From an uncultured Candidatus Saccharibacteria bacterium (GTDB lineage Bacteria > Patescibacteriota > Minisyncoccia > Portnoybacterales > UBA2143): DNA of 34,570 nt. Below, piece after piece: positions 6,134 through 26,703 of the stretch (within the stretch, counting starts at the first letter, position 1; each line of letters begins with the position of its first letter). The notes under the pieces were generated by a model, which was not told the origin of the DNA, made no database searches, and saw only the letters and a list, made by a program, of their open reading frames with translations. The DNA is taken from NCBI GenBank assembly GCA_964556655.1, contig CAZKWY010000007.1, positions 1-34,570 on the forward strand, read 5' to 3'. Made by a program: the position numbers and the translations under genes.

Positions 6134-6168
6134 AGTATTGACTGTAAATGATTGAGAGGGTATAGAAT

Positions 6169-7698
6169 ATGAGTGAAGAAGAGGGTAAAGGGGAAACAGG
6201 AGGTATAAGTAGAAGCATTAGAAGCGGTATCCCGGGGCTAGGTGACAGCGGTGGGGTTGCTTCTGATAGCTACACTAGTCGTGAAAGCTTTAAAGCTTTT
6301 AATCAACGTGGAAGATATATTGGAGCATATGAGGGATACGGTGCTAAGATACGTGACACGGATCGTTTATTCTATAGTACACGTGAACCGGTTGGAGTGT
6401 GGTGGGTTAAACACATCGCGTATGATATCTTTGATAACGGTTTCCACGTGGTTAACCCTGATGATGTGGATGATAAAACACTGGATAGAGACGTTCAGAG
6501 ACTATTTCATCAGTTAAAAGCGAAGCAGGCGCTTATACGTAGCACGGTTTTTGAGCGAAGATACGGTACAAGCATACTTGTGCATAGCTACACGGGGTTC
6601 GGTGATAACGTCGATTGGGGGACGCCTTTATTCGAGTTAGAGCCAGACGGCTCGTTCCCAGATAACCTTAACGCGGGGGAGCTTCTTCAGGTAACACCTT
6701 ACCCGTGGACATCAGTTAACGTTGATGAACTTGATCTAGATGAGTCAAGCATACGCTATGGTTTACCTTTATACTATAAGATACATATAGGTTCAGCTTC
6801 AAGCGACACAGTTGTACCGAGCGGTGAACAAGCGGATAACACAGTTAAGGTTCACTGGACTAGAGTCACGTTAGATAATCCACGACTAGATGAACACCCC
6901 TATGAAGGCATACCAGCGATAGACGCTATATTCGATGACTTAGTTGGCGGACGTAACGCACGGTGGGGAGCGTATGAATCCTATTACCGCCACGGAACAG
7001 GTTTCCCCGTGATAAAGACAAGGGGTACTCCTGAGCAGAACCGTGAATGGATAGAGAACGGTGGACTCAACGACTACGTGAATGTACGTGGATACTTCGT
7101 GTGTCACATAGATGAAGAGTTCAGCTTCGAGGGAGCACAAGGAAGGGCGCTTAACCCTAACACCTACTTCGACATGTACTACACGTTCATAGCGGCAGCC
7201 ACGGGGGTAGCGAAGGATAGTATACAAGGAGTGAGCGCGGGGCGAGTAACTGGTAGCGAGGTGAATGAGCGTCAATACTATAAATCTATCTCCTTGCTTC
7301 AGAACCAGAAAGAACCAGTGATTAGGGAACTAGTGGATAGACTCATACAGACGGGGCAAATAGAATACGAGGGCGACTACGTGATTGACTGGGTTGACCC
7401 CTTCGAGGTTAACCCACAAGATAAAGCCGCTATAGAGTTCATGGAGACACGTACAAGAGCGTTGCAGACATGGAAAACGTTTAACGAGTTAAGAGCAGAG
7501 GAGGGCTTAGAACCCATAGAAGGGGGTGACGTGTTAATGAGTCTACCGGGGCAGATGGCGCCGGGGGGCAGTGAGCCTGCTCCTAACCAAGAGGAGCCGG
7601 CGGCAACTAGTTCTGAGCCGGAGGAAGGTAGTCCTAGTGAATCAACGTTACTTGATAAGGTTCTCGGTAAAGCCTTGGATGCCTTGGGTAAGGAGTGA
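6169..7698 (+). CDS. portal protein
   Basis: 509 aa ORF immediately downstream of the terminase region, with an acidic Pro/Glu-rich C-terminus. Called from size and gene order. Confidence 0.6.
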   Translation: MSEEEGKGETGGISRSIRSGIPGLGDSGGVASDSYTSRESFKAFNQRGRYIGAYEGYGAKIRDTDRLFYSTREPVGVWWVKHIAYDIFDNGFHVVNPDDVDDKTLDRDVQRLFHQLKAKQALIRSTVFERRYGTSILVHSYTGFGDNVDWGTPLFELEPDGSFPDNLNAGELLQVTPYPWTSVNVDELDLDESSIRYGLPLYYKIHIGSASSDTVVPSGEQADNTVKVHWTRVTLDNPRLDEHPYEGIPAIDAIFDDLVGGRNARWGAYESYYRHGTGFPVIKTRGTPEQNREWIENGGLNDYVNVRGYFVCHIDEEFSFEGAQGRALNPNTYFDMYYTFIAAATGVAKDSIQGVSAGRVTGSEVNERQYYKSISLLQNQKEPVIRELVDRLIQTGQIEYEGDYVIDWVDPFEVNPQDKAAIEFMETRTRALQTWKTFNELRAEEGLEPIEGGDVLMSLPGQMAPGGSEPAPNQEEPAATSSEPEEGSPSESTLLDKVLGKALDALGKE

Positions 7699-7702
7699 GA
7701 CT

Positions 7703-8593
7703 ATGGGTGATTCATTTTATACCCTTGTTTGCCCGTTATGTGACGGAGAACGTTTTATAACTGATTTATATAACTGTGAAGAGGTTTGCGTAAACTGTGG
7801 ATACGTGTTGAATAACCCATCGGATAAGAGAATACCTGTGCATCTACGAGGATACGAGAAAAACTATGGAGGCGAGGTACGTGAGAGTGTACATGATAAG
7901 GGGCTTAGCACAACGTTTAACGTTGGACGAGACGCCGCGGGGGCTTCACTGGATAAGGAAACCATGAACCTTGTTTACCGTATGAGGAAACATAACCGTC
8001 GTAGTAAGATAAATGACAGCGTTCAACGTAACCTCAGCATAAGCCTCAGCGAGCTTGACCGTATGATAGGGGTGTTAAAGCTACCTGAGTACGTGAAAGA
8101 GGAAGCTGCTCATATCTACCGCACGGCTTTACATATGGATATGATACGTGGGCGTAGTATAGATGACTTTGTAGCGGCAGCGGTTTATATGGCGTGCCGT
8201 AAACTACGGGTAGCACGCACCCTACGAAGCATAGTGGATGCGAGTAAGGGATGCTATGAGGATGTGTCCCGTACTTATCGTTTAATGCTACGTGAACTAG
8301 ATATACGTCTCCCCGTGGATACTCCGGGAAAGTTTGTGGCTGATATAGCTAGTTACCTTGGTTTACCTAGATGGGTTGAAAGGGAGGCTGTTGAGACGTT
8401 ATCTACGGCTCGTAGTCGTCGTTTAACGGTTGGTAAAGACCCTAAAGGGGTTGCTGCTAGTGCTTTGTATTATATTTGTGTAAAGAACGGGGTGGATGTT
8501 GTGCAACGTGATCTTAGTGAGGCTTGTGGAGTGTCTGAGATTACTATAAGGAATCGTTACCGTGACCTAGTTGACGGGTTAGGTGAGGACTAG
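7703..8593 (+). CDS. tfb: transcription factor B (TFB/TFIIB) homolog
   Basis: The ATG at 7703 directly follows the portal stop; the track ORF starts at an upstream GTG at 7571 inside the portal gene. N-terminal Zn ribbon CPLCDGERFITDLYNCEEVCVNCG. Two cyclin-like repeats: LPEYVKEEAAHIYRTAL...RGRSIDDFVAAAVYMACR and LPRWVEREAVETLSTARSRRLTVGKDPKGVAASALYYICV...ITIRNRYRDL. Confidence 0.85.
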   Translation: MGDSFYTLVCPLCDGERFITDLYNCEEVCVNCGYVLNNPSDKRIPVHLRGYEKNYGGEVRESVHDKGLSTTFNVGRDAAGASLDKETMNLVYRMRKHNRRSKINDSVQRNLSISLSELDRMIGVLKLPEYVKEEAAHIYRTALHMDMIRGRSIDDFVAAAVYMACRKLRVARTLRSIVDASKGCYEDVSRTYRLMLRELDIRLPVDTPGKFVADIASYLGLPRWVEREAVETLSTARSRRLTVGKDPKGVAASALYYICVKNGVDVVQRDLSEACGVSEITIRNRYRDLVDGLGED

Positions 8594-8620
8594 GAGAGGT
8601 GTGGGTTTAGTGTCTAGTCT

Positions 8621-8953
8621 ATGTTTATTAATCATTCTACGCTAACTAATATGAGGATACTTCACGTGTCAGATGCAGATTCAAGTATTAACTACCCGAC
8701 TGTAAACGAGTGTAAACTTATTCAGAGAAGCGTTGATAACCGTTTTTTATCCCTAGAACATGATATAATGGAGAATAAACGGGTTAACAGTAAACTATCT
8801 AAGATAATAATAGGGAACGGAGGGGTTGGACTCGTAGAGAAAGTGAATCTACTCTATCACCGTAACCAGTTGCTTTACCATTTTTTCGGGGTAATACAGT
8901 CAATAAGTGTTTCACTTATAATATTATACTTAACAGGAGTTTTAAAACTATGA
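8621..8953 (+). CDS. hypothetical protein
   Basis: 110 aa ORF with a hydrophobic C-terminus, between the TFB and protease genes. Confidence 0.3.
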   Translation: MFINHSTLTNMRILHVSDADSSINYPTVNECKLIQRSVDNRFLSLEHDIMENKRVNSKLSKIIIGNGGVGLVEKVNLLYHRNQLLYHFFGVIQSISVSLIILYLTGVLKL

Positions 8954-10326
8954 AGGATATGAAGGAAGGAAAAGATATGAAGATAATTTATCAGCAAGAC
9001 GAATACACGTTATCACCTGACAAGATAACAGAGTACACTCACCCCGTGTACGGGGAAGTCACCGTGTTCCATGACGTAGTGATAGCGTCAGAGATAGTTC
9101 AACAATACAGCGACGGATACGCTTATAAGCCAAGAGAAGAGTTACAGCAATACACGTGGACAGCCGACGGTAGATGGGTTACACTCCGTCAACACCCCCA
9201 AGAGGGAGTGATAAGCACCCGTGACCAAGTGTCAGGGCGCACTGTGAACCCCAGATACGTGAAGAACCTGAAAGACCATGAAACAGGGAGACCTAACAGA
9301 GCAGGCGTATTAGCTGACGTGGAGATATTTAACGAACGAACCACCCCTCAGGCGCTTAAAGACATGCGAGACGGTAAGAAACAGGATGTAAGCATAGGGT
9401 TCTTCTACACACATGACGCAACGAAGGGAGTAGTAAACGATGGACCGTTTAAGGGAAGAGAATACGATTACGTTCAACGAAACATGTTTCATGATCATCT
9501 TGCGGCTTGTATTGATAACGGTCGTTGCCCTATGCCTCTATGCGGGATTGGGGCTGACGAACTAGGGCGTAGGTTGACTGGTGATCCCTTCGCTGGGTTC
9601 GAGGGGTTTGATGGTTTCGTGGCTAAGATATTGGAGGAGAACAGTGATTTGAGTCGGGGGGACGCTGAGAAGATATGCGGTGAACTTAAATCAGAGCATG
9701 AGGATACATGTAGTGAGGACACATTGTTGAATGCTAAGGTACGTGAGTTAATAACGGTTCTCATGGATGAGTTGGAGGAAGTTAAAGGTATGAGAGACGC
9801 TGAACGGGAACATGAGTGGATTACGAGTATAGATTGGGGAGTTGAGCCTTTCACATCTATATACGGGAGACTAGCTGAGGATACTCGGTTGCAGATTAAG
9901 GAGCTTGGACTCTGCCCCACGTGTGAGGATTCTAAAGCAGTGGATATGTCGCTTGAAGAGATTAACTCTAAGATTAAGGAGCTACAAGATAGAAGAGACG
10001 AGTTACAGGAAAAAATAGATGAAATCTATGACGAAAACATGTCTAAAGAAGAGGAAGATCCTACTTCTGAGTTATGGGATGAGATAGAGAAACTTCGAGA
10101 TGAAATTGAGGTGCTTCTTCACGCTAAAGCTATTAAACTCGCGGAAGAGAAGTCTGAGGATAAATCAGATGAATCAGAGGAAACCGAGGATGAGTCTGAG
10201 GGAAAAGAGAAGTCTGATGAACCGTCTGAGGAATCTGAACCCGATGAGGATGTTAAGGATGAGGCGTCAGGGAAGAGGGTTGACGTGGATGCTTTGCTTG
10301 AGCGTGCTAATAGGGTTCTCGGATAA
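8950..10326 (+). CDS. prohead protease (HK97/S78-like) fused to an acidic coiled-coil scaffold-like domain
   Basis: 458 aa. N-terminal region with an HET...AGVLADVEI...DVSIGF pattern resembling the His/Ser motifs of HK97 gp4-type prohead proteases. C-terminal 150 aa is a strongly acidic coiled coil (KELQDRRDELQEKIDEIYDE..., ESEETEDESEG). Confidence 0.5.
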   Translation: MKDMKEGKDMKIIYQQDEYTLSPDKITEYTHPVYGEVTVFHDVVIASEIVQQYSDGYAYKPREELQQYTWTADGRWVTLRQHPQEGVISTRDQVSGRTVNPRYVKNLKDHETGRPNRAGVLADVEIFNERTTPQALKDMRDGKKQDVSIGFFYTHDATKGVVNDGPFKGREYDYVQRNMFHDHLAACIDNGRCPMPLCGIGADELGRRLTGDPFAGFEGFDGFVAKILEENSDLSRGDAEKICGELKSEHEDTCSEDTLLNAKVRELITVLMDELEEVKGMRDAEREHEWITSIDWGVEPFTSIYGRLAEDTRLQIKELGLCPTCEDSKAVDMSLEEINSKIKELQDRRDELQEKIDEIYDENMSKEEEDPTSELWDEIEKLRDEIEVLLHAKAIKLAEEKSEDKSDESEETEDESEGKEKSDEPSEESEPDEDVKDEASGKRVDVDALLERANRVLG

Positions 10327-10376
10327 CTTCTTCATTACCTAGTTTTTATTATAATTCACGTTAAACTAAGATTTTA

Positions 10377-10544
10377 TTAATCTTCTGAAACAGAAGAATA
10401 ATTTATTACATATCCCCACCTGTAGAAAGTCTGTTGTACATCTTCTAGTTTTTCTTGGAAATCCTTCACTTCATTTTTTGAGTTGAAAAAGAGTTCTATT
10501 GGGGGATTATCTTCTCTAGGTATATGTAACGTATAATTATACAT
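10377..10544 (-). CDS. hypothetical small protein (55 aa)
   Basis: Not in the track. ATG preceded by a perfect GGAGGTGA SD with 8-nt spacing. Last gene of the - strand cassette. Confidence 0.3.
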   Translation of the reverse strand: MYNYTLHIPREDNPPIELFFNSKNEVKDFQEKLEDVQQTFYRWGYVINYSSVSED

Positions 10545-10567
10545 TTATTCTTTCACCTCCATCATGT

Positions 10568-10789
10568 TCAGTCACTTATAAACCCAAATTCCTGTAAAGT
10601 TTCATATATATCATTCATCATAGCATAAGATGTTGTCGCTTGAAGTGAATCAGGGCAACCAAAACTTCTTAGCCATAGAAGCATTTTACCCAGAATAATT
10701 TCTTCAACCCCATTTAAGTCGTAGGATTCATCATAATAAGTTCTGCATAGTTCCATGAGTTCTTCGTTTGTTGCTTCCTCTCTTGGCAT
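10568..10789 (-). CDS. hypothetical small protein
   Basis: Track ORF 10568..10798 has a GTG start; the ATG is at 10789. Part of the - strand cassette. Confidence 0.35.
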   Translation of the reverse strand: MPREEATNEELMELCRTYYDESYDLNGVEEIILGKMLLWLRSFGCPDSLQATTSYAMMNDIYETLQEFGFISD

Positions 10790-10800
10790 TTTTTTCACCT

Positions 10801-10977
10801 TTTCAATTATTCGTCATATGGATTATACCAACCCATATCCTGTTTTATTCCCTCAAGAATCAACTTAATACAATCATGACATATCTCAGTTTTCTCGTTT
10901 CCTATCTGGTAAGTTTCTCGGTTTGCATGGTTTTTACCTATACAATATTTTCCAAGCATTATCATATCTATACTCAT
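10801..10977 (-). CDS. small Cys-containing (CxxC-like) protein, 58 aa
   Basis: Not in the track. Its ATG overlaps the stop of the upstream gene (TAATG). Contains C..H...CHDC. Confidence 0.3.
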
Positions 10978-11330
10978 TACTCTTCACCTGCATCACATTT
11001 CACGACCTGTCTTAGTCTGAAACCAATAACTTTTTCTCCATTCCACTGAACCATTATATCGTTTTTGTAATTTTCCTTAAGAATCTTTACACGCGCGTCT
11101 CTCTCTTGAAGATATTTACCTAGTTCTGATTCTGGTAGTAATTCTTCTATTGGTTTTGTATATCTATGTTTTTTGAGTTCTAATAACTCCTTTCGTTGCT
11201 CATCAGTTATACCAACATATCCAAATCGCCCATTATGTTTAATTAGACAAATTTGCCATAGTCCGCCGTTTGCAGTGTAATTCATATCCGAAAAAAGTTT
11301 GTATTCTTCTGGGTATGAAGTGTTACTCAA
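10977..11330 (-). CDS. hypothetical protein
   Basis: 117 aa ORF, tightly packed in the - strand operon. Confidence 0.4.
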   Translation of the reverse strand: MSNTSYPEEYKLFSDMNYTANGGLWQICLIKHNGRFGYVGITDEQRKELLELKKHRYTKPIEELLPESELGKYLQERDARVKILKENYKNDIMVQWNGEKVIGFRLRQVVKCDAGEE

Positions 11331-11661
11331 ATTGTTCTACCTCCGTTATTCTAGGATACCACTCAAACAACACCTTATCAGCGGTTATCCTATATCTTTG
11401 ATGTAACTCAAACGTGTGGTGTCCATAATAGGTTCTAGTGAAGTAATCAGCGTCCACTATGCTTGTTGGGTGTTCGATTGTAAACGTTACCTTTGTGTGT
11501 TCCCAAGGGAAGGATGCTTGTTCAACGTTAACAACGTATCCAACTACTTGGGTTTGCCCTAAATTACGTGTAACCCCCCAGAAGGGAAGAGAGAAAACAA
11601 CGAGAAACATAAAAATAAGCATGGTGTACATGCTCTTAATTATAATATCTAATTCATCCAT
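11323..11661 (-). CDS. membrane-anchored hypothetical protein
   Basis: 112 aa with an N-terminal hydrophobic helix (MLIFMFLVVFSLPFWGV) followed by a soluble domain. Confidence 0.4.
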   Translation of the reverse strand: MDELDIIIKSMYTMLIFMFLVVFSLPFWGVTRNLGQTQVVGYVVNVEQASFPWEHTKVTFTIEHPTSIVDADYFTRTYYGHHTFELHQRYRITADKVLFEWYPRITEVEQFE

Positions 11662-11861
11662 TATTCATCATCCTCTGTCAGTGTTTGCATAGAAACATCA
11701 TAGATTCGTATCTCCAAATCTTTTCTAAAGTTCCAGTAATCAACCTCCAACTCTAACCCAGTGTGGTTTATTATTCTAACATTCTCAAAATCAACTTTAC
11801 CTTCTCCTTTAACCCAAAAATTGTTGTTGATCGTGAACGTGGGGTGTAGCTTCTCTCTCAT
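11661..11861 (-). CDS. hypothetical small protein
   Basis: 66 aa. Its stop overlaps the start of the downstream gene. Confidence 0.35.
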   Translation of the reverse strand: MREKLHPTFTINNNFWVKGEGKVDFENVRIINHTGLELEVDYWNFRKDLEIRIYDVSMQTLTEDDE

Positions 11862-11929
11862 TTTATCATCTCTCTCAAAGTATCATTGATGGATATACTA
11901 TATAACAGTTTCTATAAAATGAAACCATG

Positions 11930-12208
11930 CTACGCTAAATGCTCAGCTATAATATACTTCACATCATTCACAGACAACCCGTAACGTTCAGCGATAAACT
12001 CGTAATCATCAAACTTATACCAATCCGCAACCACTCTCTCCTCAACATCATCATCACGTTGAAGCCAACGCATCTTAGAAGCATGATCAACTAGGAAAAG
12101 CTTGCTACATGCCATGCATTTAACGAAGTCCTTACCGTCTATGGTTACGATAATATAGTTAACTCCTCCACACGCTGGGCATTTAAATGATTCACTCATA
12201 GGACTCAA
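11930..12208 (-). CDS. Zn-ribbon plus HTH-like small regulator
   Basis: 92 aa. FKCPACGG...CMAC Zn-ribbon and C-terminal YEFIAERYGLSVNDVKYIIAEH helix-turn-helix-like segment. First gene of the - strand cassette, facing a divergent promoter region. Confidence 0.45.
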   Translation of the reverse strand: MSPMSESFKCPACGGVNYIIVTIDGKDFVKCMACSKLFLVDHASKMRWLQRDDDVEERVVADWYKFDDYEFIAERYGLSVNDVKYIIAEHLA

Positions 12209-12400
12209 AACATAATACGGGTATAAGTATAAAAACTATTTGCATAAAAACCCCGTGTTTACCCTTATAAATAACCAAGTTAATAAACTAGTGAAACCCG
12301 TGGGGGTATAAACCTTCAGGAGTCATCCTGACTAATATCATGTTCACTCAAGACAACTTGAGGGTGACTAATTTTATAGAGTTGAAGAGAGGACAGTAAC

Positions 12401-12829
12401 ATGTCTAAAGAAGAGAAAAATAATAAGGAAAATAAAGAAGAAAAAGGTAAAGACGAGAAACCTGAAACAATAGACGTTAACATGGCTCTCGTATTAGCCC
12501 AACTAGAGGAAGCACTAGACACAGTAGAGAAACTAGAAACCGAGCGAGATGAACTTAAGGAAGAAAACTATAAACTAAGGGAAAGAATAAACCAGGATAG
12601 CAAGAAAACAGTGATAAACGACATAGCACAGAAAACCACTCTCAGCAAGAAAATCTTAGCGGAGATGGATTTAAAGGAACTATTAAAGTACAAGAAAATC
12701 CTAGACACAGCAAAGACATCTAGCTTCAAATCAGCGACACCCCTAAAACTAGGGAAAGACGACCCGAGGGCAAAAGTAGAGTCTATGCACGATGATTACA
12801 TGCGTAAACTTAAAGGAGGACACAAGTAA
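12401..12829 (+). CDS. coiled-coil Lys/Glu-rich protein (scaffold-like)
   Basis: 142 aa highly charged alpha-helical sequence. ATG start preceded by GAGAGG. Position just upstream of the decoration and capsid genes. Confidence 0.45.
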   Translation: MSKEEKNNKENKEEKGKDEKPETIDVNMALVLAQLEEALDTVEKLETERDELKEENYKLRERINQDSKKTVINDIAQKTTLSKKILAEMDLKELLKYKKILDTAKTSSFKSATPLKLGKDDPRAKVESMHDDYMRKLKGGHK

Positions 12830-13311
12830 TGACAACTTACCCAGTTAAACCAACTACACTAATACTAGCAGGCGGACAACCCCTAGAAATGGAGTGGAAA
12901 GCCGCAACAGCAAGCGCAATACTACCCGGAGACCTCGTGCAATTCAATAACGCTCCAACTGATTGTACCATTAAAGAAGCGGCAGCGGATAGCACAGAAG
13001 TAATCGGCGTAGCAGCGATAAGCCCCGTACCAGGTGCAACCCCCCCACGTGGAGGGGATAGAACCACAGCCTTCGAGGCGGGAGACCAAGTGAAGACTAT
13101 ACGTGGCCCAATCACAGCTATGCTACGTATAGCGTCTAGCCAGGAGATTCAGTGCGGTGAGTTCGTGCAGCCAGCGGCTTCAGGTGAAGTGAAGGCGTAT
13201 ATATGTGGGACTGATAATGATTGTCAGCGTATCGCGCAGGCTCTTGAAACAACTTCAGTGGATACTACGAGTTTCCAGTGGGGAATATTTGCCTTGGAGA
13301 GGCTAAGTTAA
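12829..13311 (+). CDS. putative head decoration-like structural protein
   Basis: 160 aa Ala/Gly/Thr-rich ORF. TAATG overlap with the upstream gene and AAGGAGGA SD. Position immediately before the major capsid protein. Resembles phage decoration proteins in composition and length only. Confidence 0.35.
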   Translation: MTTYPVKPTTLILAGGQPLEMEWKAATASAILPGDLVQFNNAPTDCTIKEAAADSTEVIGVAAISPVPGATPPRGGDRTTAFEAGDQVKTIRGPITAMLRIASSQEIQCGEFVQPAASGEVKAYICGTDNDCQRIAQALETTSVDTTSFQWGIFALERLS

Positions 13312-13318
13312 GAGGTAG

Positions 13319-14212
13319 ATGAATATGAGAAGAGATCCATTTGCAGCAGACGTTGGAATACTAACAGAGGAAGAGCAGTCATACATTGAGACACGGGTGG
13401 TTGAAACCTATAGAGCACAGCTTAGAGCGCGTCAACTGTTTAACCTATTAAATATAGGTGACGATGGCGGCGAGAAGCTTTACAGGTTCTACACTGAAAC
13501 CGATCCTAGTGAAGCGATGATTGATATGCATGGAGTAGGGGCGAGCAATGATCTTCCTGAAAAGACAGCGAACGACATTGATCTACCTGTCATACATAAA
13601 GAGTTCTTCATACCTTGGCGTGACTTAGCGGCAAGTAGAAACGAGGGGCCGAGTCTTCTTGATGATAGTATAAGAACTTGCACTAGGAAAATAGCGGAGG
13701 CAGAGGATAAACTACTTATCACAGGTCAATACACTGGCTGGGATGCTCTCGAGTTAGAGGGCTTCTTCACAGCGACGGGTAGAACCGATAACGCTTCTGC
13801 TGGTGTATGGCCGGATAACGCTTATGAGGATATTAACACTGCTCGGGGTGCTTTGCAGGATTCAGGGTTTGACGACGTTGAACCTGTTCTTGTTGCGCCC
13901 CCTGCGTTAATTACTTCATTAGATGACTTGATTGCTAACACAGGTATTACTTATAAGCAGTCGTTTATGAGTAATGGTTTGCTTAGTGATATTATTCCAT
14001 CTAGTAACGCTTACGCGGCTGACGGGAATCAGGATAGCGCTGTGTTAGTTGTACCCGGTGGCGGGAACTTCTACGCGGTTGAGGCTTTACCTATTATGAC
14101 TAGGTTGTTTGAGGATAGGATGGGGAATGTTCACGGAACTGTTCGTGAGGTTGTTGCCCCTATTATAGCTAGACCAACTGCTATTGCTGAGATTAACACT
14201 ATTACGACTTAG
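13319..14212 (+). CDS. major capsid protein, HK97/encapsulin-like fold
   Basis: 297 aa. N-terminal LTEEEQSYIETRVVETYRAQLRARQLF and C-terminal GNFYAVEALPIMTRLFEDRMGNVHGTVREVVAPIIARP match the conserved pattern of encapsulin-type HK97-fold capsid proteins. AGAGGT SD. Confidence 0.8.
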   Translation: MNMRRDPFAADVGILTEEEQSYIETRVVETYRAQLRARQLFNLLNIGDDGGEKLYRFYTETDPSEAMIDMHGVGASNDLPEKTANDIDLPVIHKEFFIPWRDLAASRNEGPSLLDDSIRTCTRKIAEAEDKLLITGQYTGWDALELEGFFTATGRTDNASAGVWPDNAYEDINTARGALQDSGFDDVEPVLVAPPALITSLDDLIANTGITYKQSFMSNGLLSDIIPSSNAYAADGNQDSAVLVVPGGGNFYAVEALPIMTRLFEDRMGNVHGTVREVVAPIIARPTAIAEINTITT

Positions 14213-14223
14213 TAATCTTATCT

Positions 14224-14234
14224 ACTTTTTTTTA
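14224..14234 (+). terminator. oligo-T tract downstream of the capsid gene (archaeal-type terminator candidate)
   Basis: T8 run (cttttttttatc) about 12 nt after the MCP stop codon. Confidence 0.3.
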
Positions 14235-14284
14235 TCTATGTTTTTAACTAGTGACGGGTATATGTTATTGTATGGTGAATATGT

Positions 14285-14680
14285 TTGAGTTATAGTCTTA
14301 AAGAGTTAGCGAAGGGAAGCGGGTTTAAGTCATCGGTTACTGTTAACGAGTCAATGGATTCTCATACGGTTCTCTACGTGGATAGTAATGGTTGCTGGGT
14401 GAAGGCGGATGCTAGTGATGCTTCTAAGATGCCGTGTAGTGGTATATCATGTGAAGATATATCATCAGGGTTGAAGGGAACAATACTTGTGACTGGGTTG
14501 ATTCATAGTAATAACTGGAACTGGACTCCTGGGGGGTTACTCTATGTTTCAACTACTAGTGGGGATATGACTCAGACAGCACCTGATGCGCAGGGTAATC
14601 GTGTTCAAATAGTTGGGAGAGCGTTATCAACGACGCTGATATTATTTAACCCTGACTTCTACATGACAACGGTTTCCTAA
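14285..14680 (+). CDS. hypothetical structural protein
   Basis: 131 aa. TTG start at 14285 with upstream GGTGA; no early ATG. Gly/Thr-rich and beta-rich in appearance. Directly follows the capsid gene. Confidence 0.35.
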   Translation: MSYSLKELAKGSGFKSSVTVNESMDSHTVLYVDSNGCWVKADASDASKMPCSGISCEDISSGLKGTILVTGLIHSNNWNWTPGGLLYVSTTSGDMTQTAPDAQGNRVQIVGRALSTTLILFNPDFYMTTVS

Positions 14681-14768
14681 TGACTTCAAAGGGTTTCATA
14701 ATGGTTTCATAGGTTCACAAAGTTTTTAACTTAATCATACAACATATCTAATAGATACAGAGAGAGAT

Positions 14769-19621: not shown

Positions 19622-20376
19622 TGGCGACAGAGCGTATAAGAGTAGATATATCACGGGATGACTTAGATAAATACCTCGATGACTTAAGTAAAGTTAGAAC
19701 CGGGACAGAGGAAACAGAGTCAGGTTTACCGGGGATAAGGAAAGAAGTTAATAAGATAAGAAGAGAAGCAGCTGCCTCTGGTTTAAACCTAGATGAGTTA
19801 CCTGCTCTTAACCGTGAGTTAAGGATTATCGGGCGTCTTATACCCGGGTTCACACGTGGCTCTAGCCTATATTTTCAGTTACGGAGACAAGTTAGGGGGC
19901 AGATGGGCACACGTTCCGCTGATGCTTTACGTGAACAGTTAAGCGACCCTAAGTTTATTCAAGACTTGATGACTGAGACAGGGGAAACTGAGAACGTTAT
20001 ACGTAACTTTATCGAGAAACAGATAACCGCTGATTTAATGAAGGGGGCTTTAGCGAAAATCGTTATAGTTGCGGTTATAATTCAATTCATTGTAAAGACT
20101 ATTAGACAAGTAGAGAAAAAGATTGAACGTGAACGCGCTCAGTTTGAGAACGAGATAAGGCGTGACACTGAGCTTACGCATAGACAGTTCCGTGAATTAC
20201 AGGCTGAGCAGATAGGGTTCGCTACGTGGGTAGATCAGTTTGAAGCAGAGTGGGATGAAGAAGGGTTTGTGAATACGGCTGTTAAAACAGTGATAAACCG
20301 TCTTCAAGCACAAGGATACATATTACCGAAGGGAGGGAAATACACGGCGGCTTCGCAAGTTGATCCGTGGCAGTGA
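19621..20376 (+). CDS. tape-measure-like coiled-coil protein with one TM segment
   Basis: 251 aa largely helical protein with a hydrophobic helix (ALAKIVIVAVIIQFIVKTI), located before the large fibre gene. TAATG overlap with the upstream gene. Confidence 0.35.
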   Translation: MATERIRVDISRDDLDKYLDDLSKVRTGTEETESGLPGIRKEVNKIRREAAASGLNLDELPALNRELRIIGRLIPGFTRGSSLYFQLRRQVRGQMGTRSADALREQLSDPKFIQDLMTETGETENVIRNFIEKQITADLMKGALAKIVIVAVIIQFIVKTIRQVEKKIERERAQFENEIRRDTELTHRQFRELQAEQIGFATWVDQFEAEWDEEGFVNTAVKTVINRLQAQGYILPKGGKYTAASQVDPWQ

Positions 20377-20378
20377 CA

Positions 20379-23300
20379 ATGACAGATGTAACAATAACTA
20401 TTGGTGGAAACAACGTTAGTAACAGCGTCATAGACGTAGACATATATAAAAATAAGGATACGGGGATAGGTAACTGTGAGTTAATACTAGATAATGATAG
20501 TGACACATGGGGTGACACGTTTAACCCTAATGACGCTGTGAGTATAAGCATAAACGGTGACCTAGTTTTCACTGGATACGTTGACGACGTTGTGCCGAAG
20601 CTAGAGAAAACAGGTGTCTTAACTAATAGGCTACGGGTTAAAACACGTGACGATGGGAGAATACTTACAGATTACTATGTGACAACCCCTAGATACAATA
20701 AAACCGCAGCAGGAGTTATAATAACTAACATATTATCAGAGGCAGGAGACCCCTTAACCTACTCTGACCCGGGTGGAACGCCTTCGATTACGTATAAATG
20801 TAAACGCACTAAGCTAAGTGACGCTTTAAATGATATAAGTAAACTCTCTGGATGGGATTACTATGTTGACACAACGGGGGAGCTTCACTTCTTTGAAGCA
20901 GGCACCGTTGATAGCGGAGTGGATTTAATCAGTGAAGCAGGGGGAGCGAATAATAATCTTCTCAGCTTCGAGGAGTATGAGAGTATAGGAGTAGATATTA
21001 AGAACTATATTGAGATACACGGTGGCTCGTTGAAGGATCACTGGACAGAGGGAAACGCTAGTGACTGGAGCGTGTTAACTGGGGCAGGTACAACCATGGA
21101 TGATGATGACTCGGTTCATCACCCGTATGGTGACTATAGCGTTGAGATAGTTGTAGCGGATACTGATGAAACGGTTGGATTAGACTTCAGTGGGGGCTTG
21201 TATAGTCAGGGAACTAGTATTGATTTAACTGAGTTCTGTCAATCAACAATCATATTCATACCTAAAGCAGGTTCAACGGGGGCATTTAGTTTTCAGCCTT
21301 ACCTTAAAGACGGTTCTGGTAGAGACATATTCTTCTATAGAAGTAAGGATGATGGAAACGGAAGAACTAACACTGCGTTAGGGGGTGGACTGGACGCTGA
21401 TGTATTTTCATGGAGAATACTTAAGTATCCTATGGGTGAGCATACTGATAACGAGATAGTGGATTCAGGTACAACCACTATGAAGAACGGTAAATGGCAT
21501 GGAAACCCTAACTTTGATTGGAGCGACGTAGAGCAACTAGGATTCAACATACAGGTAAGTGACACCGCTAACGTTGACACAATATACGTTGACATGTGGA
21601 GTATACCTAGCTTAGAAGTTAAAAGCATATCAGAGGACAGCGGAGCAGGAAGCAGTCAAGAAACCTACGGAAAGCGAATGTACAGTGAGTATAAGAAAGA
21701 GTTAACCAGTCAAGGCGAGTTAGATGATTATTCAGCGAAGCAGTTAGCGTTAAAGAAAGACCCTGTGAAGAAGTTTAAAGCATTAGCCGTAGGGGAAACA
21801 GGTACATTATACGCGGCTCAATCAGTAGACGTGTTAGCCCCGGGATACGGTATAGCGGCTCTCACGGATTACATAATAGTTGAGCTTCATCATATACTTC
21901 ATAACGATGACGATGAACGGGGATGGGATTATGTTACAGAGTATGAGTTAGCTGAGTCAGATGTAGACGCTACACGTATCATATACACGGATAACCCCGT
22001 GGAAGCAGAGTTACAAGCACTACGTAAAGCGAATAGAGGATATAAGGGAAGCGTAACTGATGACGATTACTGGATAGGGAACATATCACTAGGAGTAGGC
22101 ACACAGATACTTAGAGGAACAGAGTTCCCAACGGATCAGAACGATGGAGACGAGTTCTTCCTAACCACAGATTATACGGATGGAGGGGGTAACGAGTACT
22201 ATGGCCCAGCGTTATATAAGTATGATGACGATGCTGGTGACTGGGTGCGTAACCCCATAGTCATGCATCGGGGTGCTGACCCTAACGCGGGGGGGGAGGT
22301 TACAGGGGACACGCTTCACCGTACGGATGAGGATAAATGGTATGAGTGGACTGGTGCTGCTTGGAGTCTTATAGAGTTCGCGGCTTCCACGGTTAGCGGT
22401 GAACTTGACGCGGATCAATTATCAATAGAGATGCGTCCATGGAGTCATAACCTTGAACTAAGGTTCTACGAGGACGCTGCAAACGACTACGCGTCACCAG
22501 TTATAGATAGGGTTTACTGGGGGAAAGGAGGGGAATACAGTGAAGGAGTGGACGCGGATGATAGCGGGTTCTCTGAGGTGAATGAAGCTCAGGTAAAGTT
22601 TGACGGGGGAACCACTGTGGATATAAACTCAGGTGACTCTGATGATGATTACCCCGCTGGTTTAGCTGTTGGAAAACATTTCCTGTACTGGGATGAAACA
22701 GAGAAAACGGGGGATGACTATGATCTTCAGATAGCTAGTGGTGTGGATAACTATGGTGACGCTGTTGGCTCAGGGAAGGGACTTATCGCGATAATAGGTA
22801 TAGATGCGTCTGGTACACCTACTCTTATACCTGTTGATAGTTATTTTCCATATCTAGGTGTAGGTGTGTTGAACGCTAACACGGTGTTAAGTAGACATAT
22901 CACTGCAACGGAGTGGATTACAGGTAAAAACTTTCAAACCGCAGTGGATGTAGGGTCTGGTAGTGCGGGAATAAAATTTAATTCAAACGGGATAATAGGA
23001 TACACCGCGGGAGGAGACAAAACTGTTGAAATGGAGGCGGGAACAGGACATTTCATAGCTTACGGTAACGCTGGTGGGGGGGCAGGTTCATTCAGAATAA
23101 ATATTGGTGGAGATAACTATGGGTGGATTAGTTGCCAAGACGATGGAGCAGATGAAGTAGTAGAGATAAGAGGAGACAACCAGATATGGATGAATGTCTT
23201 CGGAGATTTAATTAAATTACTTCCAAACAAAGAAATTCAAGCTAAATCCTATAATATAGAAAATGCACCAGCAGACGACACAGGAACCGGGATAACTAAA

Positions 23301-23678
23301 ACATTCATAGCAACAGAAGCAATAGCAATAGGACAAGCAGTATATTTGGATGATGATGGAGACACATATGCGGAAGTAGGTTTAGCAAGAGCACACTCAT
23401 ACGCTACAATGCCATGTATCGGAATAGCCACATCAACAGCCGCAGCAGATGGGGATACTTTAACGGTGCTTCTATTCGGCGTCATGGAGGACACTTCGCG
23501 TTGGAGTGGATTCGCTAACCCCGGTGACGGAGTATATGTATCAGAGTCCACGGCAGGAGACTTAACAACCACGCAACCAAGTGGTAGCGGGGAACTTGTG
23601 CAACGCGTCGGAGAAGTCACTGATGACGGTGGAGAGTTATTGTTTGCGCCAAACAAGTATATCTTGGAGCTAGCGTAG
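20379..23678 (+). CDS. large tail fibre / host-recognition structural protein (1099 aa)
   Basis: The ATG at 20379 follows the upstream stop; the track start is a GTG at 20367. Gly/Asp/Thr-rich and beta-rich throughout. The N-terminal 100 aa resembles distal-tail/baseplate-type domains. Confidence 0.5.
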   Translation: MTDVTITIGGNNVSNSVIDVDIYKNKDTGIGNCELILDNDSDTWGDTFNPNDAVSISINGDLVFTGYVDDVVPKLEKTGVLTNRLRVKTRDDGRILTDYYVTTPRYNKTAAGVIITNILSEAGDPLTYSDPGGTPSITYKCKRTKLSDALNDISKLSGWDYYVDTTGELHFFEAGTVDSGVDLISEAGGANNNLLSFEEYESIGVDIKNYIEIHGGSLKDHWTEGNASDWSVLTGAGTTMDDDDSVHHPYGDYSVEIVVADTDETVGLDFSGGLYSQGTSIDLTEFCQSTIIFIPKAGSTGAFSFQPYLKDGSGRDIFFYRSKDDGNGRTNTALGGGLDADVFSWRILKYPMGEHTDNEIVDSGTTTMKNGKWHGNPNFDWSDVEQLGFNIQVSDTANVDTIYVDMWSIPSLEVKSISEDSGAGSSQETYGKRMYSEYKKELTSQGELDDYSAKQLALKKDPVKKFKALAVGETGTLYAAQSVDVLAPGYGIAALTDYIIVELHHILHNDDDERGWDYVTEYELAESDVDATRIIYTDNPVEAELQALRKANRGYKGSVTDDDYWIGNISLGVGTQILRGTEFPTDQNDGDEFFLTTDYTDGGGNEYYGPALYKYDDDAGDWVRNPIVMHRGADPNAGGEVTGDTLHRTDEDKWYEWTGAAWSLIEFAASTVSGELDADQLSIEMRPWSHNLELRFYEDAANDYASPVIDRVYWGKGGEYSEGVDADDSGFSEVNEAQVKFDGGTTVDINSGDSDDDYPAGLAVGKHFLYWDETEKTGDDYDLQIASGVDNYGDAVGSGKGLIAIIGIDASGTPTLIPVDSYFPYLGVGVLNANTVLSRHITATEWITGKNFQTAVDVGSGSAGIKFNSNGIIGYTAGGDKTVEMEAGTGHFIAYGNAGGGAGSFRINIGGDNYGWISCQDDGADEVVEIRGDNQIWMNVFGDLIKLLPNKEIQAKSYNIENAPADDTGTGITKTFIATEAIAIGQAVYLDDDGDTYAEVGLARAHSYATMPCIGIATSTAAADGDTLTVLLFGVMEDTSRWSGFANPGDGVYVSESTAGDLTTTQPSGSGELVQRVGEVTDDGGELLFAPNKYILELA

Positions 23679-23679: not shown

Positions 23680-24810
23680 ATGGTTATACGTTACTATGAG
23701 TTAATGAGCAGTTATTTCAGCCCTAGCTCCGGGTTCACATGGGAAGAGTTTGACTTAACAAGCAGAGGGGTTCCAGCGAATTGTGTAGCGGAGATAGGTA
23801 TAGAGCACCCCAAAGCAGAAGGTGGAAGCGCTCTTGAGCAACGTGCAGGCGTACGTGAGGTTGGTAGTGGTCTTAGCCGTAGAATAGTTTTAAGCCCCTA
23901 TGCGGGAGCACGCCAACGTGCCACTATGAGAGTTAATGTTGATGGTGACAGTAAAATAGAGATATATGGATCGTATCTCACAATACCATCTAATCCTCAT
24001 CCTTATTTTCAAGTACTAGGATACTACACCGGGGGAACATATACAGAGACAAACATAGAACTAGACTTCACGGATAACACATGGCACACAAACGACTTAT
24101 ATACAAGCGATAGCGTACCGAAAGGCTCAGTTGTAGACGTAATAATAGGACCCGGTCGTGAAGGGGGGGTTCAAGAGGTTGGTTTACGTGAGTTCGGTGA
24201 ATCTGGTCGTACTTATCTTATGAAGGACACGTGGTATGATTATGGTGAGAACACGGTTAGCATATATGAGACTACTGACGCTAGTGACGGGAAGATTCAA
24301 ACCTATTGTGAAGACGCTACTTATATGGCGGAGAGTAATATTGTTGCTGGTTACTGGGATAGTAGCATAGAGTACACGGTTATGGATCAGATACTAGTAC
24401 CATCTAGTGCAGCTTCATGGGTTGATCATGATTTGGATACCTATAGTGTTCCAACTAATGTACCGGGGGTGTTTATTCAGTTTAACCGTGAGGATGATAC
24501 GGTTAACACTATTGGTGTGCGTGAGGATGGTAGCAGTTTAACTCGGTACACTAACGTGGATTATGGGGAATACGTTAACCCGGATTACTACGCTACGTGT
24601 GGCACTATGACTTGTCAAGTTACTGGCGCTGATAGTCGTGTTGAGTTATACACTACTGACACTACTTATGGGTATCTGATACTTGACGGTTATCTTAAGA
24701 CTAAGGGGAAACTAGCTAAACTTGATGGAATAAGTCTAGCGGATATAGATAAAATTGATGGTATAGATTTAACGGATATAATCGCTGTTAATAATATTCC
24801 CACAAGCTAG
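23680..24810 (+). CDS. fibre/receptor-binding-like protein with internal repeats
   Basis: 376 aa. Three copies of a G-V-R-E-x-G-S-x-L/R-type module: EQRAGVREVGSGLSRRIVLSPY, GGVQEVGLREFGESGRTYLMKD and NTIGVREDGSSLTRYTNVD. C-terminal DGISLADIDKIDGIDLTDI tandem. Confidence 0.4.
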   Translation: MVIRYYELMSSYFSPSSGFTWEEFDLTSRGVPANCVAEIGIEHPKAEGGSALEQRAGVREVGSGLSRRIVLSPYAGARQRATMRVNVDGDSKIEIYGSYLTIPSNPHPYFQVLGYYTGGTYTETNIELDFTDNTWHTNDLYTSDSVPKGSVVDVIIGPGREGGVQEVGLREFGESGRTYLMKDTWYDYGENTVSIYETTDASDGKIQTYCEDATYMAESNIVAGYWDSSIEYTVMDQILVPSSAASWVDHDLDTYSVPTNVPGVFIQFNREDDTVNTIGVREDGSSLTRYTNVDYGEYVNPDYYATCGTMTCQVTGADSRVELYTTDTTYGYLILDGYLKTKGKLAKLDGISLADIDKIDGIDLTDIIAVNNIPTS

Positions 24811-24852
24811 ATTCTCTACTCTTTTAACCAACCACGCCTATACACTTATAGA

Positions 24853-25194
24853 ATGATAGAAACATCACTACTCGGTATGACAGACTTAGAGACCATATAC
24901 ATGATAGGCATATTCGTAGGCACACTAATACTAGCACTCGCCCCGTATATACGTAAAATAGATGAAGGTAAAGTAACCGAATGGAACCACGCATACACAT
25001 TCGTTATGCTAGTAGCTTTCACCGTAGCGTTTATAGCGAGCTTCATAGTGTTCAGCCTAAACCCGTTAGAAGCAGTTACACCCCCTCTCGCCCTCGCTCA
25101 GGGGTTAATAGTTGGACTCGCGGCTAAGCCCACGGTTGAGGAGCTACTGAAACGATTGGTTCCTTCATGGTTTAAAGACGTTAACGGGGAGTAG
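24853..25194 (+). CDS. small 3-TM membrane protein (holin-like by architecture)
   Basis: 113 aa with three hydrophobic helices and a charged C-terminus. Immediately upstream of the peptidase-like gene. Confidence 0.4.
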   Translation: MIETSLLGMTDLETIYMIGIFVGTLILALAPYIRKIDEGKVTEWNHAYTFVMLVAFTVAFIASFIVFSLNPLEAVTPPLALAQGLIVGLAAKPTVEELLKRLVPSWFKDVNGE

Positions 25195-25196
25195 CG

Positions 25197-25886
25197 TTGA
25201 CGCTATGGGATAGTCTCTCATCACTGTTCTGCTCAAAGTATCAGAACAAGGTAAGGGACTTGGAGGCTGAGAACACTGTGCTACGTGAAGATAAACGCGT
25301 GTTGAAACGTAACTACAGTAACCTTCTAGAGGAGAAACAGGAGCTAGTGGCTGCTTTAACAGCTGAGACTCTTGACCTTTATCAACAGTTACAGGATTTA
25401 CAAGCGGTAATAGCTTCAAGTATGCCGATACCTGATATATCCATACACTTAGATAACCCTATCCTGTTTAAACCATTCAACGAGGATATTGGGATACCTC
25501 TTGGTTTAATAGGTGACGCAGAGTACTATACGTGGACTTTGGAGCAGTGGAGACAGATGCTTTCACCTGTGCAGGACGTGGTTCGTGAACATGCTTTAAA
25601 GAATGGGTGGGTAACCGAGATAAGTGACTGCGAGAACTTCGCTGTGGTTATGTCAGGGATTTTGATGACATCGTTTTTACATAGTGGCTTAGATAAACAG
25701 GGAGCGTTCCTTCTTACTCGTAGCCGTAGTCACGCGTATAACGTGTTTGTAGCGAGGGATGGTGACGTGTTTACTCCCTACGTGTATGAGCCTCAGAGCG
25801 ATAAAGTAGTTGGGAAACTGGATATGGTGGATTGGGAGCCTTATGTGACGATTAAAGGATGGTATCTGGGAACCGCGATAGTTTAA
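25197..25886 (+). CDS. transglutaminase/papain-like cysteine peptidase candidate with N-terminal leucine-zipper coiled coil
   Basis: 229 aa. TTG start after GGGGAG; the first ATG is far downstream. C-terminal ISDCENFAVVMSGIL ... SHAYNVFVARDGDVF gives a Cys, then His about 36 aa later, then Asp about 12 aa after that, as in transglutaminase-like peptidases. Confidence 0.4.
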   Translation: MTLWDSLSSLFCSKYQNKVRDLEAENTVLREDKRVLKRNYSNLLEEKQELVAALTAETLDLYQQLQDLQAVIASSMPIPDISIHLDNPILFKPFNEDIGIPLGLIGDAEYYTWTLEQWRQMLSPVQDVVREHALKNGWVTEISDCENFAVVMSGILMTSFLHSGLDKQGAFLLTRSRSHAYNVFVARDGDVFTPYVYEPQSDKVVGKLDMVDWEPYVTIKGWYLGTAIV

Positions 25887-25941
25887 CAATTATCACAACC
25901 TTTTTATATTTACGCCGTAACCCTATTTCTAGGAATAAACA

Positions 25942-26703
25942 ATGGATGATATAAGAGAACCGATTACTTGCTTCGATGACGAGGAGTGTAACTATGATGG
26001 ATGCCCCTTGTTCAACGTGAAGCTTGATAAATGTAAGTTATGGAAGCTTAAAACGTTACTAGACTCCACAGCAGAGGCGAAGACACCTATACGTGAAACA
26101 GTACCTCAGTCTAAAGAGGTTAAAGAAGTTAACCCGTTATATGATTACCCGCCTTCAAGACAGGATTTAGAGGCTAAGCTGGGTGACGTGTTTGACTCGG
26201 ATTTAGAGTATTGTTCTGATGGAACAGTTAAGACACGTAGATTCCTAGATGATAAATGGGGAGAAATTAATGAAGTGTTAGCTAGTATGGGTTACTCGTG
26301 GCATAGTGATAAAGAGAGTAAAGTCTATGAGTGGAGATACGGTGAAAAGAAACCCATAGTAAAGAAGAAAGATAAGAAGGATGAAACCATCTTCGCTAAC
26401 CTAAAACAAGACAGCTTCGCTCCTAAACTAAAAGGGAAAATAGTGGACGACCCCGTTCAGAGAGACATAGACACAAGTTATGGCCCTAAGACGTTAGCTA
26501 ATTTTAGGTTAAACGATGGAACAGCAAACATTCGTGTAACACTATGGGGTGACTTAGCTGAGGAAATCATGGATCATGTTAAGGGAGACGAGATAACTCT
26601 AACTAACATGAGTGTAAGAGACCATTATAAGGGAACATTACAGGTAAGCAGTACTCGCCCTAACCCTGAGAAGAAGTTTAAAGGTACACAGCTTTTTTCC
26701 TAA
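25942..26703 (+). CDS. RPA/SSB-like OB-fold ssDNA-binding protein
   Basis: 253 aa. C-terminal KGKIVDDPVQRDIDTSYGPKTLANFRLNDGTANIRVTLWGDLAEEI...GDEITLTNMSV matches the archaeal RPA OB-fold pattern. N-terminal Cys cluster (CFDDEECNYDGC...C). Confidence 0.5.
   Translation: MDDIREPITCFDDEECNYDGCPLFNVKLDKCKLWKLKTLLDSTAEAKTPIRETVPQSKEVKEVNPLYDYPPSRQDLEAKLGDVFDSDLEYCSDGTVKTRRFLDDKWGEINEVLASMGYSWHSDKESKVYEWRYGEKKPIVKKKDKKDETIFANLKQDSFAPKLKGKIVDDPVQRDIDTSYGPKTLANFRLNDGTANIRVTLWGDLAEEIMDHVKGDEITLTNMSVRDHYKGTLQVSSTRPNPEKKFKGTQLFS

Follow-up and report, generated by a model that had tools for sequence, protein, structure and literature searches.

Two adjacent genes downstream of the fibre genes

The window, i.e., the whole stretch of DNA analysed here (34,570 bp, 41.9% G+C), carries two adjacent plus-strand genes that are the subject of this work: one for a 113-aa small membrane protein, a holin-like candidate (24853..25194), and one for a 229-aa protein predicted to be a cysteine protease (25197..25886). 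The list of open reading frames (ORFs) agrees with the initial annotation on the coordinates of both genes and on their place directly after the fibre genes, the latter being two tail-end genes for a 1103-aa protein (20367..23678, plus strand) and a 376-aa fibre candidate. The initial annotation had interpreted the two genes as a candidate lysis pair. As described below, they are conserved as a tightly coupled pair, and the protease shares the fold of the fungal proteins MOA and PSL1a, whereas the lysis function itself is proposed here with more caution. Over the 1,300 bp that were compared (window 24701..26000), the sequence is identical to that of L001, a metagenomic contig of 59 kb (logan SRR7048225_56066).

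The small membrane protein

Based on hydropathy, the 113-aa protein has two strong transmembrane segments, at residues ~15-36 and ~46-70. Its initial description as a membrane protein holds, but not the count of three helices: the third stretch (residues 77-91) is weakly hydrophobic, and it is too short in the relatives of 85-95 aa. Additionally, the protein has a basic/acidic loop and a charged amphipathic C-terminus (KPTVEELLKRLVPSWFKDVNGE); the C-terminal pattern in its relatives is G-[LF]-A-A-x-D-x-I-E-N-[LF]. Using a profile of six relatives, we obtained a family of 17 members of 85-113 aa, which carry neither a Pfam domain nor an informative name. The small size, the transmembrane segments, the charged C-terminus and the location 2 nt upstream of the protease gene are all traits of the holin class.

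A homologue of this protein occupies the same place in another contig, L004. Between the two genes, the proportion of nonsynonymous differences (pN) is 0.197 and that of synonymous differences (pS) is 0.78, a comparison in which the synonymous sites are saturated, and the differences are distributed 30/18/65 over the three codon positions. Because of this counterpart, with its low pN relative to pS and its codon-position bias, the 113-aa ORF is recognised as a genuine gene under purifying selection. On the identical contig, automatic gene callers had skipped the 113-aa ORF and chosen a minus-strand ORF of 66 aa (24846..25046), which we rejected because L004 has no ORF that would correspond to it in position and because the coding-type codon-position signature lies in the plus-strand frame.

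The start and N-terminal module of the protease

The TTG codon at 25197, located 2 nt after the stop of the membrane-protein gene, is the first possible start in the frame of the protease ORF. A Shine-Dalgarno-like GGGGAG (25186..25191, plus strand) precedes this TTG by 5 nt and thus falls within the final codons of the gene for the membrane protein, a placement that suggests translational coupling of the two genes. The homologues keep the protease sequence from approximately residue 4, including an [LF]FC motif at residues 10-12, and the first internal Met is residue 76. These observations confirm the TTG start that was initially implied.

The N-terminal module (residues 1-75; 25197..25421, plus strand) consists of the hydrophobic [LF]FC motif followed by a long helix. 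In the AlphaFold2 (AF2) model built from an alignment of 60 sequences, a single helix spans residues 3-75, with a predicted local distance difference test (pLDDT) score of ~90-98. The heptad analysis, carried out in 28-residue windows within residues ~15-76, gave 62-75% hydrophobic residues at the a/d positions, with one register shift, and weak coiled-coil matches were obtained in Pfam. The N-terminal coiled coil of the initial annotation is thus well supported, and it would favour oligomerisation of the protease. Neither a signal peptide nor a transmembrane segment was detected in the protease. Cys12 of the [LF]FC motif is kept in 41 of 60 relatives; a lipoprotein signal at this motif was considered and rejected, because the Cys is preceded by neither a basic n-region nor a hydrophobic core and position -1 is occupied by Phe.

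The active site and fold of the protease

Residue conservation was counted in the alignment of 60 diverse relatives. Cys145 (in DCENFA) and His179 (in SHAYN), the two catalytic candidates of the initial annotation, are present in 60/60 sequences, and the complete set of invariant residues includes D107, C145, H179, A180, N182, E198, P199 and Q200. The third catalytic residue initially proposed, the Asp of 'DGD' (D188), has to be replaced: it is located in a beta-hairpin turn and is Asp in only 27/60 relatives, whereas Glu198 of the YEPQ motif is the invariant acidic partner. W138, C145, H179, E198 and Q200 align exactly with W208, C215, H257, E274 and Q276 of MOA. The codon of Cys145, the predicted nucleophile, is located at 25629..25631, and that of His179, the predicted base, which lies within an HA[YF]N motif, at 25731..25733. 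The Trp138 codon, which would correspond to the oxyanion-hole residue of MOA (Trp in 44/60 and Tyr in 14/60 relatives), is found at 25608..25610, and the Glu198-Pro199-Gln200 codons, aligned to FFEPQN of MOA, at 25788..25796; all are on the plus strand.

In MOA, the domain has papain-like cysteine protease activity that depends on Ca2+/Mn2+, with Cys215 and His257 at the active site (PMC4764322, PMC8244254). In this enzyme, Glu274 anchors the His, Gln276 follows, and Trp208 is located in the oxyanion hole (PMC4764322, PMC8244254). D107, D144, D146 and D/N147 of the viral protease are invariant or nearly so, and they align with D183, D214, D216 and D217 of MOA. Enzymes of the MOA type are activated through a binuclear Ca2+/Mn2+ site, and the conserved acidic residues beside the catalytic Cys suggest a similar dependence on Ca2+ or Mn2+ for the viral protein.

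The family profile was compared with the proteins of the PDB. With nine sequences, the profile matched PSL1a (3phz) with an E-value of 2.7e-8 and MOA (2iho) with an E-value of 1e-4; with 60 sequences, these values were 3.7e-13 and 4.3e-13, respectively. Coiled coils aside, the C-terminal domain of PSL1a/MOA was the sole kind of solved protein matched by the family profiles, and at the sequence level the resemblance is far above chance. The first AF2 model, based on nine sequences, had a pLDDT of 66.5 and gave no significant Foldseek match in the PDB, the best being LapG with an E-value of 0.057; a good model was obtained when the 60-sequence alignment replaced this input. The protease shares the three-dimensional fold of the MOA/PSL1a-type family (PF18021/PF18022). 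Fold recognition, which had been named as a check in the initial annotation, thus led to the fold of a catalytic domain and not to the non-catalytic one that would have refuted the initial interpretation.

Single-sequence searches were less informative. Direct scans of the window protease against Pfam, PHROGs, NCBIfam and PADLOC returned coiled-coil noise only and nothing for the catalytic domain. The window protein alone was not among the matches of PF18021 at E-values up to 10, while seven of nine relatives match this family weakly and several relatives carry precomputed PF18021/PF18022 matches. Peptidase_C71, PMBR repeats and Transglut_core were absent among the Pfam families reported for nine members. 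Based on these results, the C-terminal domain (residues 76-229; 25422..25886, plus strand) is best described as a cysteine peptidase of the papain/transglutaminase-like superfold with a predicted intact active site. The transglutaminase-like peptidase of the initial annotation is correct as to superfold, but not as to family, MOA/PSL1a being closest. Pfam detected no ricin-B (beta-trefoil) lectin domain in the protease, and its N-terminus is the single helix 3-75; the viral protein shares the protease domain of MOA only and is not a chimerolectin. A prohead-protease role for the 229-aa protein was considered and rejected, as a separate DUF2213 protein is already present in the head module of the window.

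The protease family and its variants

Nine close homologues of the 229-aa protease were found in the initial search. An exhaustive profile search extended the family to at least 464 metagenomic cluster representatives at an E-value <1e-3, 135 of which are found at an E-value <1e-10. The motifs DC[DE][DN][FWY]A, HA[YF]N and EPQ are near-universal in the family and are usually preceded by an N-terminal [LF]FC motif and then a coiled coil. A tblastn search of the INPHARED collection, from which many archaeal viruses are missing, Pyrobaculum filamentous virus 1 (PFV1) and Methanophagales virus GBV302 among them, did not return any match for four family members (the window protein, P0144, P0131 and P0008), and neither did a megablast search of the window against the same collection; given the gaps in the collection, both negative results carry little weight.

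In several relatives, namely P0037, P0041, P0078, P0100 (450-504 aa) and P0116, the catalytic Cys is the precise site of an insertion of ~270 aa (..D-C-[insert]-C-DD[FW]A..; compare L007, 46..504). The insertion carries LAGLIDADG-like motifs and a weak match to PF14528 (E-value 0.016). At the same site, P0116 matches the Hint/intein-splicing family PF14890 with an E-value of 1e-7 and a bit score just below the Pfam gathering cut-off. The flanks of P0078 are ~95% identical to an uninterrupted allele in a metagenome-assembled genome (MAG) of Ca. Culexmicrobium; because of this identity, we conclude that intein-bearing and intein-free alleles coexist. The location of an intein-like insertion at the predicted catalytic Cys indicates that this conserved site is important for fitness.

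A different variant, P0142 (583 aa), keeps the N-terminal 130 residues, i.e., the coiled coil and linker, which are 37% identical to those of P0004 (E-value 2e-19), and has ~450 aa in place of the protease domain. The replacement matches a right-handed beta-helix weakly (E-value 0.012) and has no sequence match in the PDB. Because P0142 keeps the N-terminal module and swaps the protease for a beta-helix-like domain, we consider that the sequences suggest a module that delivers exchangeable envelope-degrading heads.

Conservation of the gene pair

The neighbourhoods of protease family members were compared at fifteen independent loci. The membrane-protein family accompanies the protease gene at eight of them (the window lineage, L004, L006, L007, L011, L012, L015 and L017), and this pairing persists down to ~25-30% protease identity. 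The start and stop codons of paired genes usually overlap or stand 2 nt apart; in L007, the partner is located within ~1 kb of the protease gene and not directly beside it, and in L015 the partner gene is inverted and convergent. Other small transmembrane proteins adjoin the protease gene in L005 and L014.

At four loci (L006, L011, L012 and L015), the pair opens the late operon and is followed directly by TerS/TerL, a position in which lambdoid phages also carry their lysis cassettes. In L011, L012 and L015, it comes after a strand switch from early-type genes, among them a PCNA-like gene in L015. In the window and in L014, the pair is located between tail/fibre genes and the next module, and the L014 protease gene overlaps the end of a Gly-rich fibre-like gene.

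Promoter-like elements around the pair

A TATA-like element, TTTTAA (24822..24827, plus strand), ~28 nt upstream of the ATG of the membrane-protein gene, is a candidate archaeal promoter for a leaderless two-gene transcript. After the protease stop, AACCTTTTTATATTT (25897..25911, plus strand) combines a T-run with a TATA-like element; it would mark where the pair ends and is a likely promoter of the next gene (25942..). Motifs of the form TTTT[AT]A[ACT] are ~8-fold enriched 20-45 nt upstream of plus-strand ORF starts in the window. In L009 and L010, a conserved AACCTTTTTAAAC precedes the protease ATG at the same distance as that of the window element from the membrane-protein ATG (~25-36 nt upstream of position 6001). 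Because TATA-like elements bracket the pair, it would constitute a separate two-gene transcription unit. T-rich TATA-like TTTT[AT]A elements, often after CC or AACC, are found at window positions 14241, 14724, 24822, 25901 and 26725, and their recurrence suggests archaeal promoters with a TFB-recognition element (BRE) and a TATA box, with short or absent leaders.

The virus and its predicted host

Based on Pfam and PHROG scans, the window encodes a large terminase, a portal, an HK97/linocin-type capsid protein and the baseplate-hub-like 1103-aa protein; because of these genes, we assign the window to a tailed virus. TerL and the major capsid protein have only distant matches, to bacterial-phage or halovirus proteins, and no tRNA genes were found in the window. 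A TFIIB/TFB homologue is encoded at 7571..8593 (plus strand), with two cyclin-like TFIIB repeats (E-value 5.8e-35) and a weak Zn-ribbon match. Because the window encodes this homologue, we assign the virus to an archaeal host. The TFIIB/TFB gene sits within the head-morphogenesis module, with the portal gene on one side and a DUF2213 gene on the other; its true start is probably further downstream than the listed GTG, because the latter makes the ORF overlap the portal ORF by ~128 nt.

The relatives of the protease that can be placed belong to Thermoproteota, namely the Ca. Culexmicrobium (Culexarchaeia) MAG, a Desulfurococcaceae MAG and PFV1. Pseudomurein walls belong to the Methanobacteriales and Methanopyrales, and pseudomurein is not known from any of the Thermoproteota lineages that carry protease relatives.

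As for the 1103-aa protein, a baseplate-hub/GpP-like region is found at its N-terminus, and its C-terminal segment resembles phage head-decoration ('cement') proteins weakly (Pfam E-value 3e-4; phrog_122 E-value 0.007), a mixture that is odd in a tail protein.

Other genes near protease homologues

Between the protease and small terminase genes, both L006 (1056..1340) and L012 (6724..6942) encode a small protein of the tail-anchored type, which is conserved, has no Pfam match and carries its only transmembrane segment at the C-terminus; the module may thus have a third component. In L013, a 115-aa protein (6494..6841, plus strand) is encoded directly downstream of the protease homologue. It has an N-terminal signal- or transmembrane-like segment and its own C...H...IIEPQNDNIV motif, and it did not reach an E-value <1e-3 against the hidden Markov model of the family; it may be a second, secreted and degenerate copy of the protease fold.

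The 316-kb contig L003, which is probably cellular, encodes a homologue, P0003, that is 57% identical and lacks the membrane partner (region 5402..14694). Its neighbours are a CARDB surface protein of 954 aa and a PKD/Big-domain protein of 1150 aa, and genes for a phage tail-collar protein and a DUF6916 protein come shortly before them; the locus may represent the remains of a provirus or a copy that has been domesticated. A minus-strand block with radical-SAM and DUF483 genes is found next to the pair in L004 (1370..4638) and L017 (1828..6888), with a sulfotransferase gene in L017, and may encode virus-borne modification enzymes. In L010 (4414..5717), the protease homologue is directly preceded by genes of the QueT transporter and TGT/DpdA-like types, which suggests 7-deazaguanine DNA modification in this virus.

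A proposed lysis module and its alternatives

Based on the reality of both genes, the fold and homology of the protease, its predicted intact active site, the conserved pairing and the archaeal virus context, the interpretation that we favour, at somewhat less than an even chance, is that the two genes constitute an envelope-breaching (lysis) module of an archaeal tailed virus, composed of a holin-like protein and a metal-gated protease. In this proposal, the membrane protein and the translationally coupled, signal-less protease would form a discrete two-gene module, and the coiled coil would oligomerise the C-terminal MOA-type protease with its active site Trp138/Cys145/His179/Glu198/Gln200. 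The protease would build up inactive in the cytoplasm and would need Ca2+ or Mn2+ bound by the acidic residues beside the Cys. Late in infection, the membrane protein would permeabilise the membrane in the fashion of a holin, and the released protease would meet the metal-rich exterior and complete lysis by cutting a protein of the envelope, for instance that of the S-layer or its membrane anchor. Catalytic activity, metal gating, pore formation, envelope substrate and timing are thus the steps that we infer. The tight coupling of the two genes and the conservation of their pairing make a lysis role reasonable.

Several observations weigh against this proposal. Three of them are at odds with a universal, essential role in lysis: the membrane-protein partner family is missing at 7 of the 15 loci; in L009, L010 and L013, the protease gene is found among DNA-metabolism genes; and the relatives in PFV1, which are probably genes 29 and 30, are missing from PFV2 and are seemingly dispensable there. 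In addition, scans of the 113-aa protein against Pfam, PHROG, NCBIfam and PADLOC gave no match, and it matches no known holin family. Finally, the position after the fibre genes and the beta-helix swap of P0142 equally fit a virion-associated enzyme, the swap as such being as compatible with entry as with egress.

The last point leads to an alternative that we consider unlikely, in which the coiled coil anchors a dimeric or trimeric protease to the baseplate or fibres and the enzyme cuts the S-layer at adsorption and DNA injection; the membrane protein would then have a function in assembly or immunity, or no relation to the protease beyond its location. The location after the baseplate-hub-like 1103-aa protein and the 376-aa fibre candidate, the overlap with the fibre-like gene in L014 and the layout of P0142, in which an N-terminal module precedes a beta-helix-like domain as is typical of tailspikes and depolymerases, all agree with an entry enzyme, and long N-terminal coiled coils are common in fibre and needle proteins. 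Nevertheless, in L006, L011, L012 and L015 the gene precedes the terminase genes, beyond a strand switch and at a distance from the tail genes; a conserved small-membrane-protein partner, inverted in one locus, would be unexpected for a fibre component; and the TATA-like elements set the pair apart from the fibre genes. It is quite unlikely, in our estimate, that the protease acts instead as an intracellular effector that its partner recruits to the membrane, where it would cleave a cytoplasmic or membrane-proximal host protein (a cell-division, endosomal sorting complex required for transport (ESCRT) or defence protein, or an S-layer precursor) for takeover, superinfection exclusion or anti-defence. 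With the metal dependence that the acidic residues suggest, such an enzyme would stay inactive in the cytoplasm, where Ca2+ is low; from the beta-helix swap variant, the substrate would rather be a polymer outside the cell; and, coiled-coil noise aside, the PADLOC defence families gave no match. This possibility does account for the lack of a signal peptide, for the replication and DNA-modification genes around the protease in L009, L010 and L013, and for the seeming dispensability of the PFV1 relatives, and MOA itself is described as a toxin protease that acts inside cells after uptake (PMC4717121).

Two further alternatives concern the domain itself. If its MOA-like fold served only for dimerisation or 'lectin-like' binding, as the annotation of PFV1 genes 29/30 implies, the domain would be non-catalytic. 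The protease domain of MOA does double as its dimerisation domain (PMC4764322), and the PFV1 proteins have been described as lectin-like. However, the Cys, His, Glu and Gln residues are present in 60/60 sequences that are 18-30% identical, with Trp or Tyr at position 138 in 58/60, and an intein at the Cys implies a need for splicing to regenerate the DCDD motif. The ricin-B lectin domain is absent, and the Pfam family has been reclassified as papain-like, its 'lectin' label stemming from the neighbouring trefoil domain (PMC10318531). A domain without catalysis is consequently very improbable. To the pseudomurein-cleaving enzyme of the initial annotation, i.e., a transglutaminase-like Cys-His-Asp endoisopeptidase of the Pei type from a virus of a methanogen, we give almost no credence. 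Among the lysis enzymes of archaeal tailed viruses, only those of the Pei type have been characterised (PMC10791045), and they have in common with the viral protease the general papain/transglutaminase-like superfold and the order C...H...acid. Against this, none of the nine members has Peptidase_C71, PMBR or Transglut_core among its reported families, the best sequence and structure matches are MOA and PSL1a, the acidic residue is the Glu of EPQ within a MOA-specific Trp/Gln arrangement, and the relatives are found in Thermoproteota MAGs and a Pyrobaculum virus.

Significance and comparison with known systems

According to a review from 2024, no S-layer-degrading viral enzyme is known, holins are elusive and the egress machinery of tailed archaeal viruses is 'completely uncharacterized' (PMC10791045). 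The membrane protein and protease described here are concrete, conserved candidates for the lysis of S-layer-only hosts, in which a cell wall of the bacterial type is absent. The enzyme domain is of a known kind, already labelled automatically in UniProt for PFV1. In the literature searched, we did not find a description of the architecture that combines a coiled coil with a MOA-type protease, of the partnership with the new membrane protein, of the size of the family in archaeal viruses or of the candidate lysis role. As a possibility held with more reserve than the lysis role as such, the pair would be the first lysis cassette to be recognised in archaeal tailed viruses with pseudomurein-free hosts, made up of a new holin-like family, a coiled-coil, Ca/Mn-gated protease that cuts the S-layer or its anchor, and an N-terminal module with exchangeable heads.

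The MOA protease fold is regarded as fungal-specific in the MOA literature (PMC8244254). If our interpretation is correct, archaeal viruses and proviruses are a large reservoir of this fold, in which some of the at least 464 clusters carry inteins at the catalytic Cys, and the N-terminal coiled coil is a general delivery handle for protease or beta-helix heads. A thermostable, metal-switchable protease of the archaeal envelope could also serve as an archaea-lysing tool.

The bacteriophage holin-endolysin cassettes likewise consist of an adjacent, coupled pair of a small membrane protein and a signal-less envelope-degrading enzyme at the boundary between the tail module and the terminase genes. 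Their enzyme is a murein hydrolase, whereas here it is a predicted protease, with a membrane protein outside the known holin families and a putative role in lysis. PeiW, PeiP and PeiR are, like the viral protease, cysteine peptidases of archaeal tailed viruses; they act in lysis, and their crossing of the membrane is also unresolved (PMC10791045). They differ in their C71 domain and PMBR repeats, of which the viral protease shows neither signature, its coiled coil standing where the Pei repeats are, as well as in their active-site signature and likely hosts. For a further archaeal virus, Methanophagales virus GBV302, a putative 'PET_C39-like endopeptidase' (WAE39590.1) has been reported (PMC12596118).

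Among predicted viral structures (BFVD), the best match of the protease was the 'Agglutinin C-terminal domain-containing protein' of PFV1, A0A140F3M5 (Foldseek E-value 1.3e-6, probability 1.00). This 167-aa protein belongs to a filamentous enveloped virus of another realm and is probably the product of the 'lectin-like' gene 29 or 30; both genes were published under this description and are absent from the closely related PFV2. PFV1 is a lytic virus of Thermoproteota, and the tristromaviruses are lytic as a family. A MOA-type fold match was also found in the giant virus Klosneuvirus KNV1 (A0A1V0SJY7; Foldseek E-value 5.3e-4 against BFVD).

LapG/BTLCP (PDB 4FGO) is the nearest structural neighbour of the protease outside the MOA type, with ~15% identity and no match at the sequence level; membership of the protease in the transglutaminase-core or BTLCP families (PF01841 or PF06035, with a Cys-His-Asp triad) was not found. 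LapG, a Ca-dependent protease that frees a surface protein, is a useful analogy for the viral enzyme, from which it differs in having a signal peptide and in being a housekeeping enzyme of bacteria. The closest known proteins are MOA (PDB 2IHO/3EF2/5MU9) and PSL1a (3PHZ), which have the same active site, with a Trp oxyanion hole, a Cys-His dyad, a Glu anchor and a Gln, and share the three family motifs and the acidic positions with the viral protease. Studies of this type of protease have so far been confined to mushroom toxins. A trait of this family is a homodimer in which the active-site cleft is shared between the protomers. In MOA and PSL1a, which are fungal, the protease domain is joined to a ricin-B lectin domain, whereas the viral protease is encoded by an archaeal virus, has a 75-residue coiled coil with the [LF]FC motif instead, and is paired with a small membrane protein.

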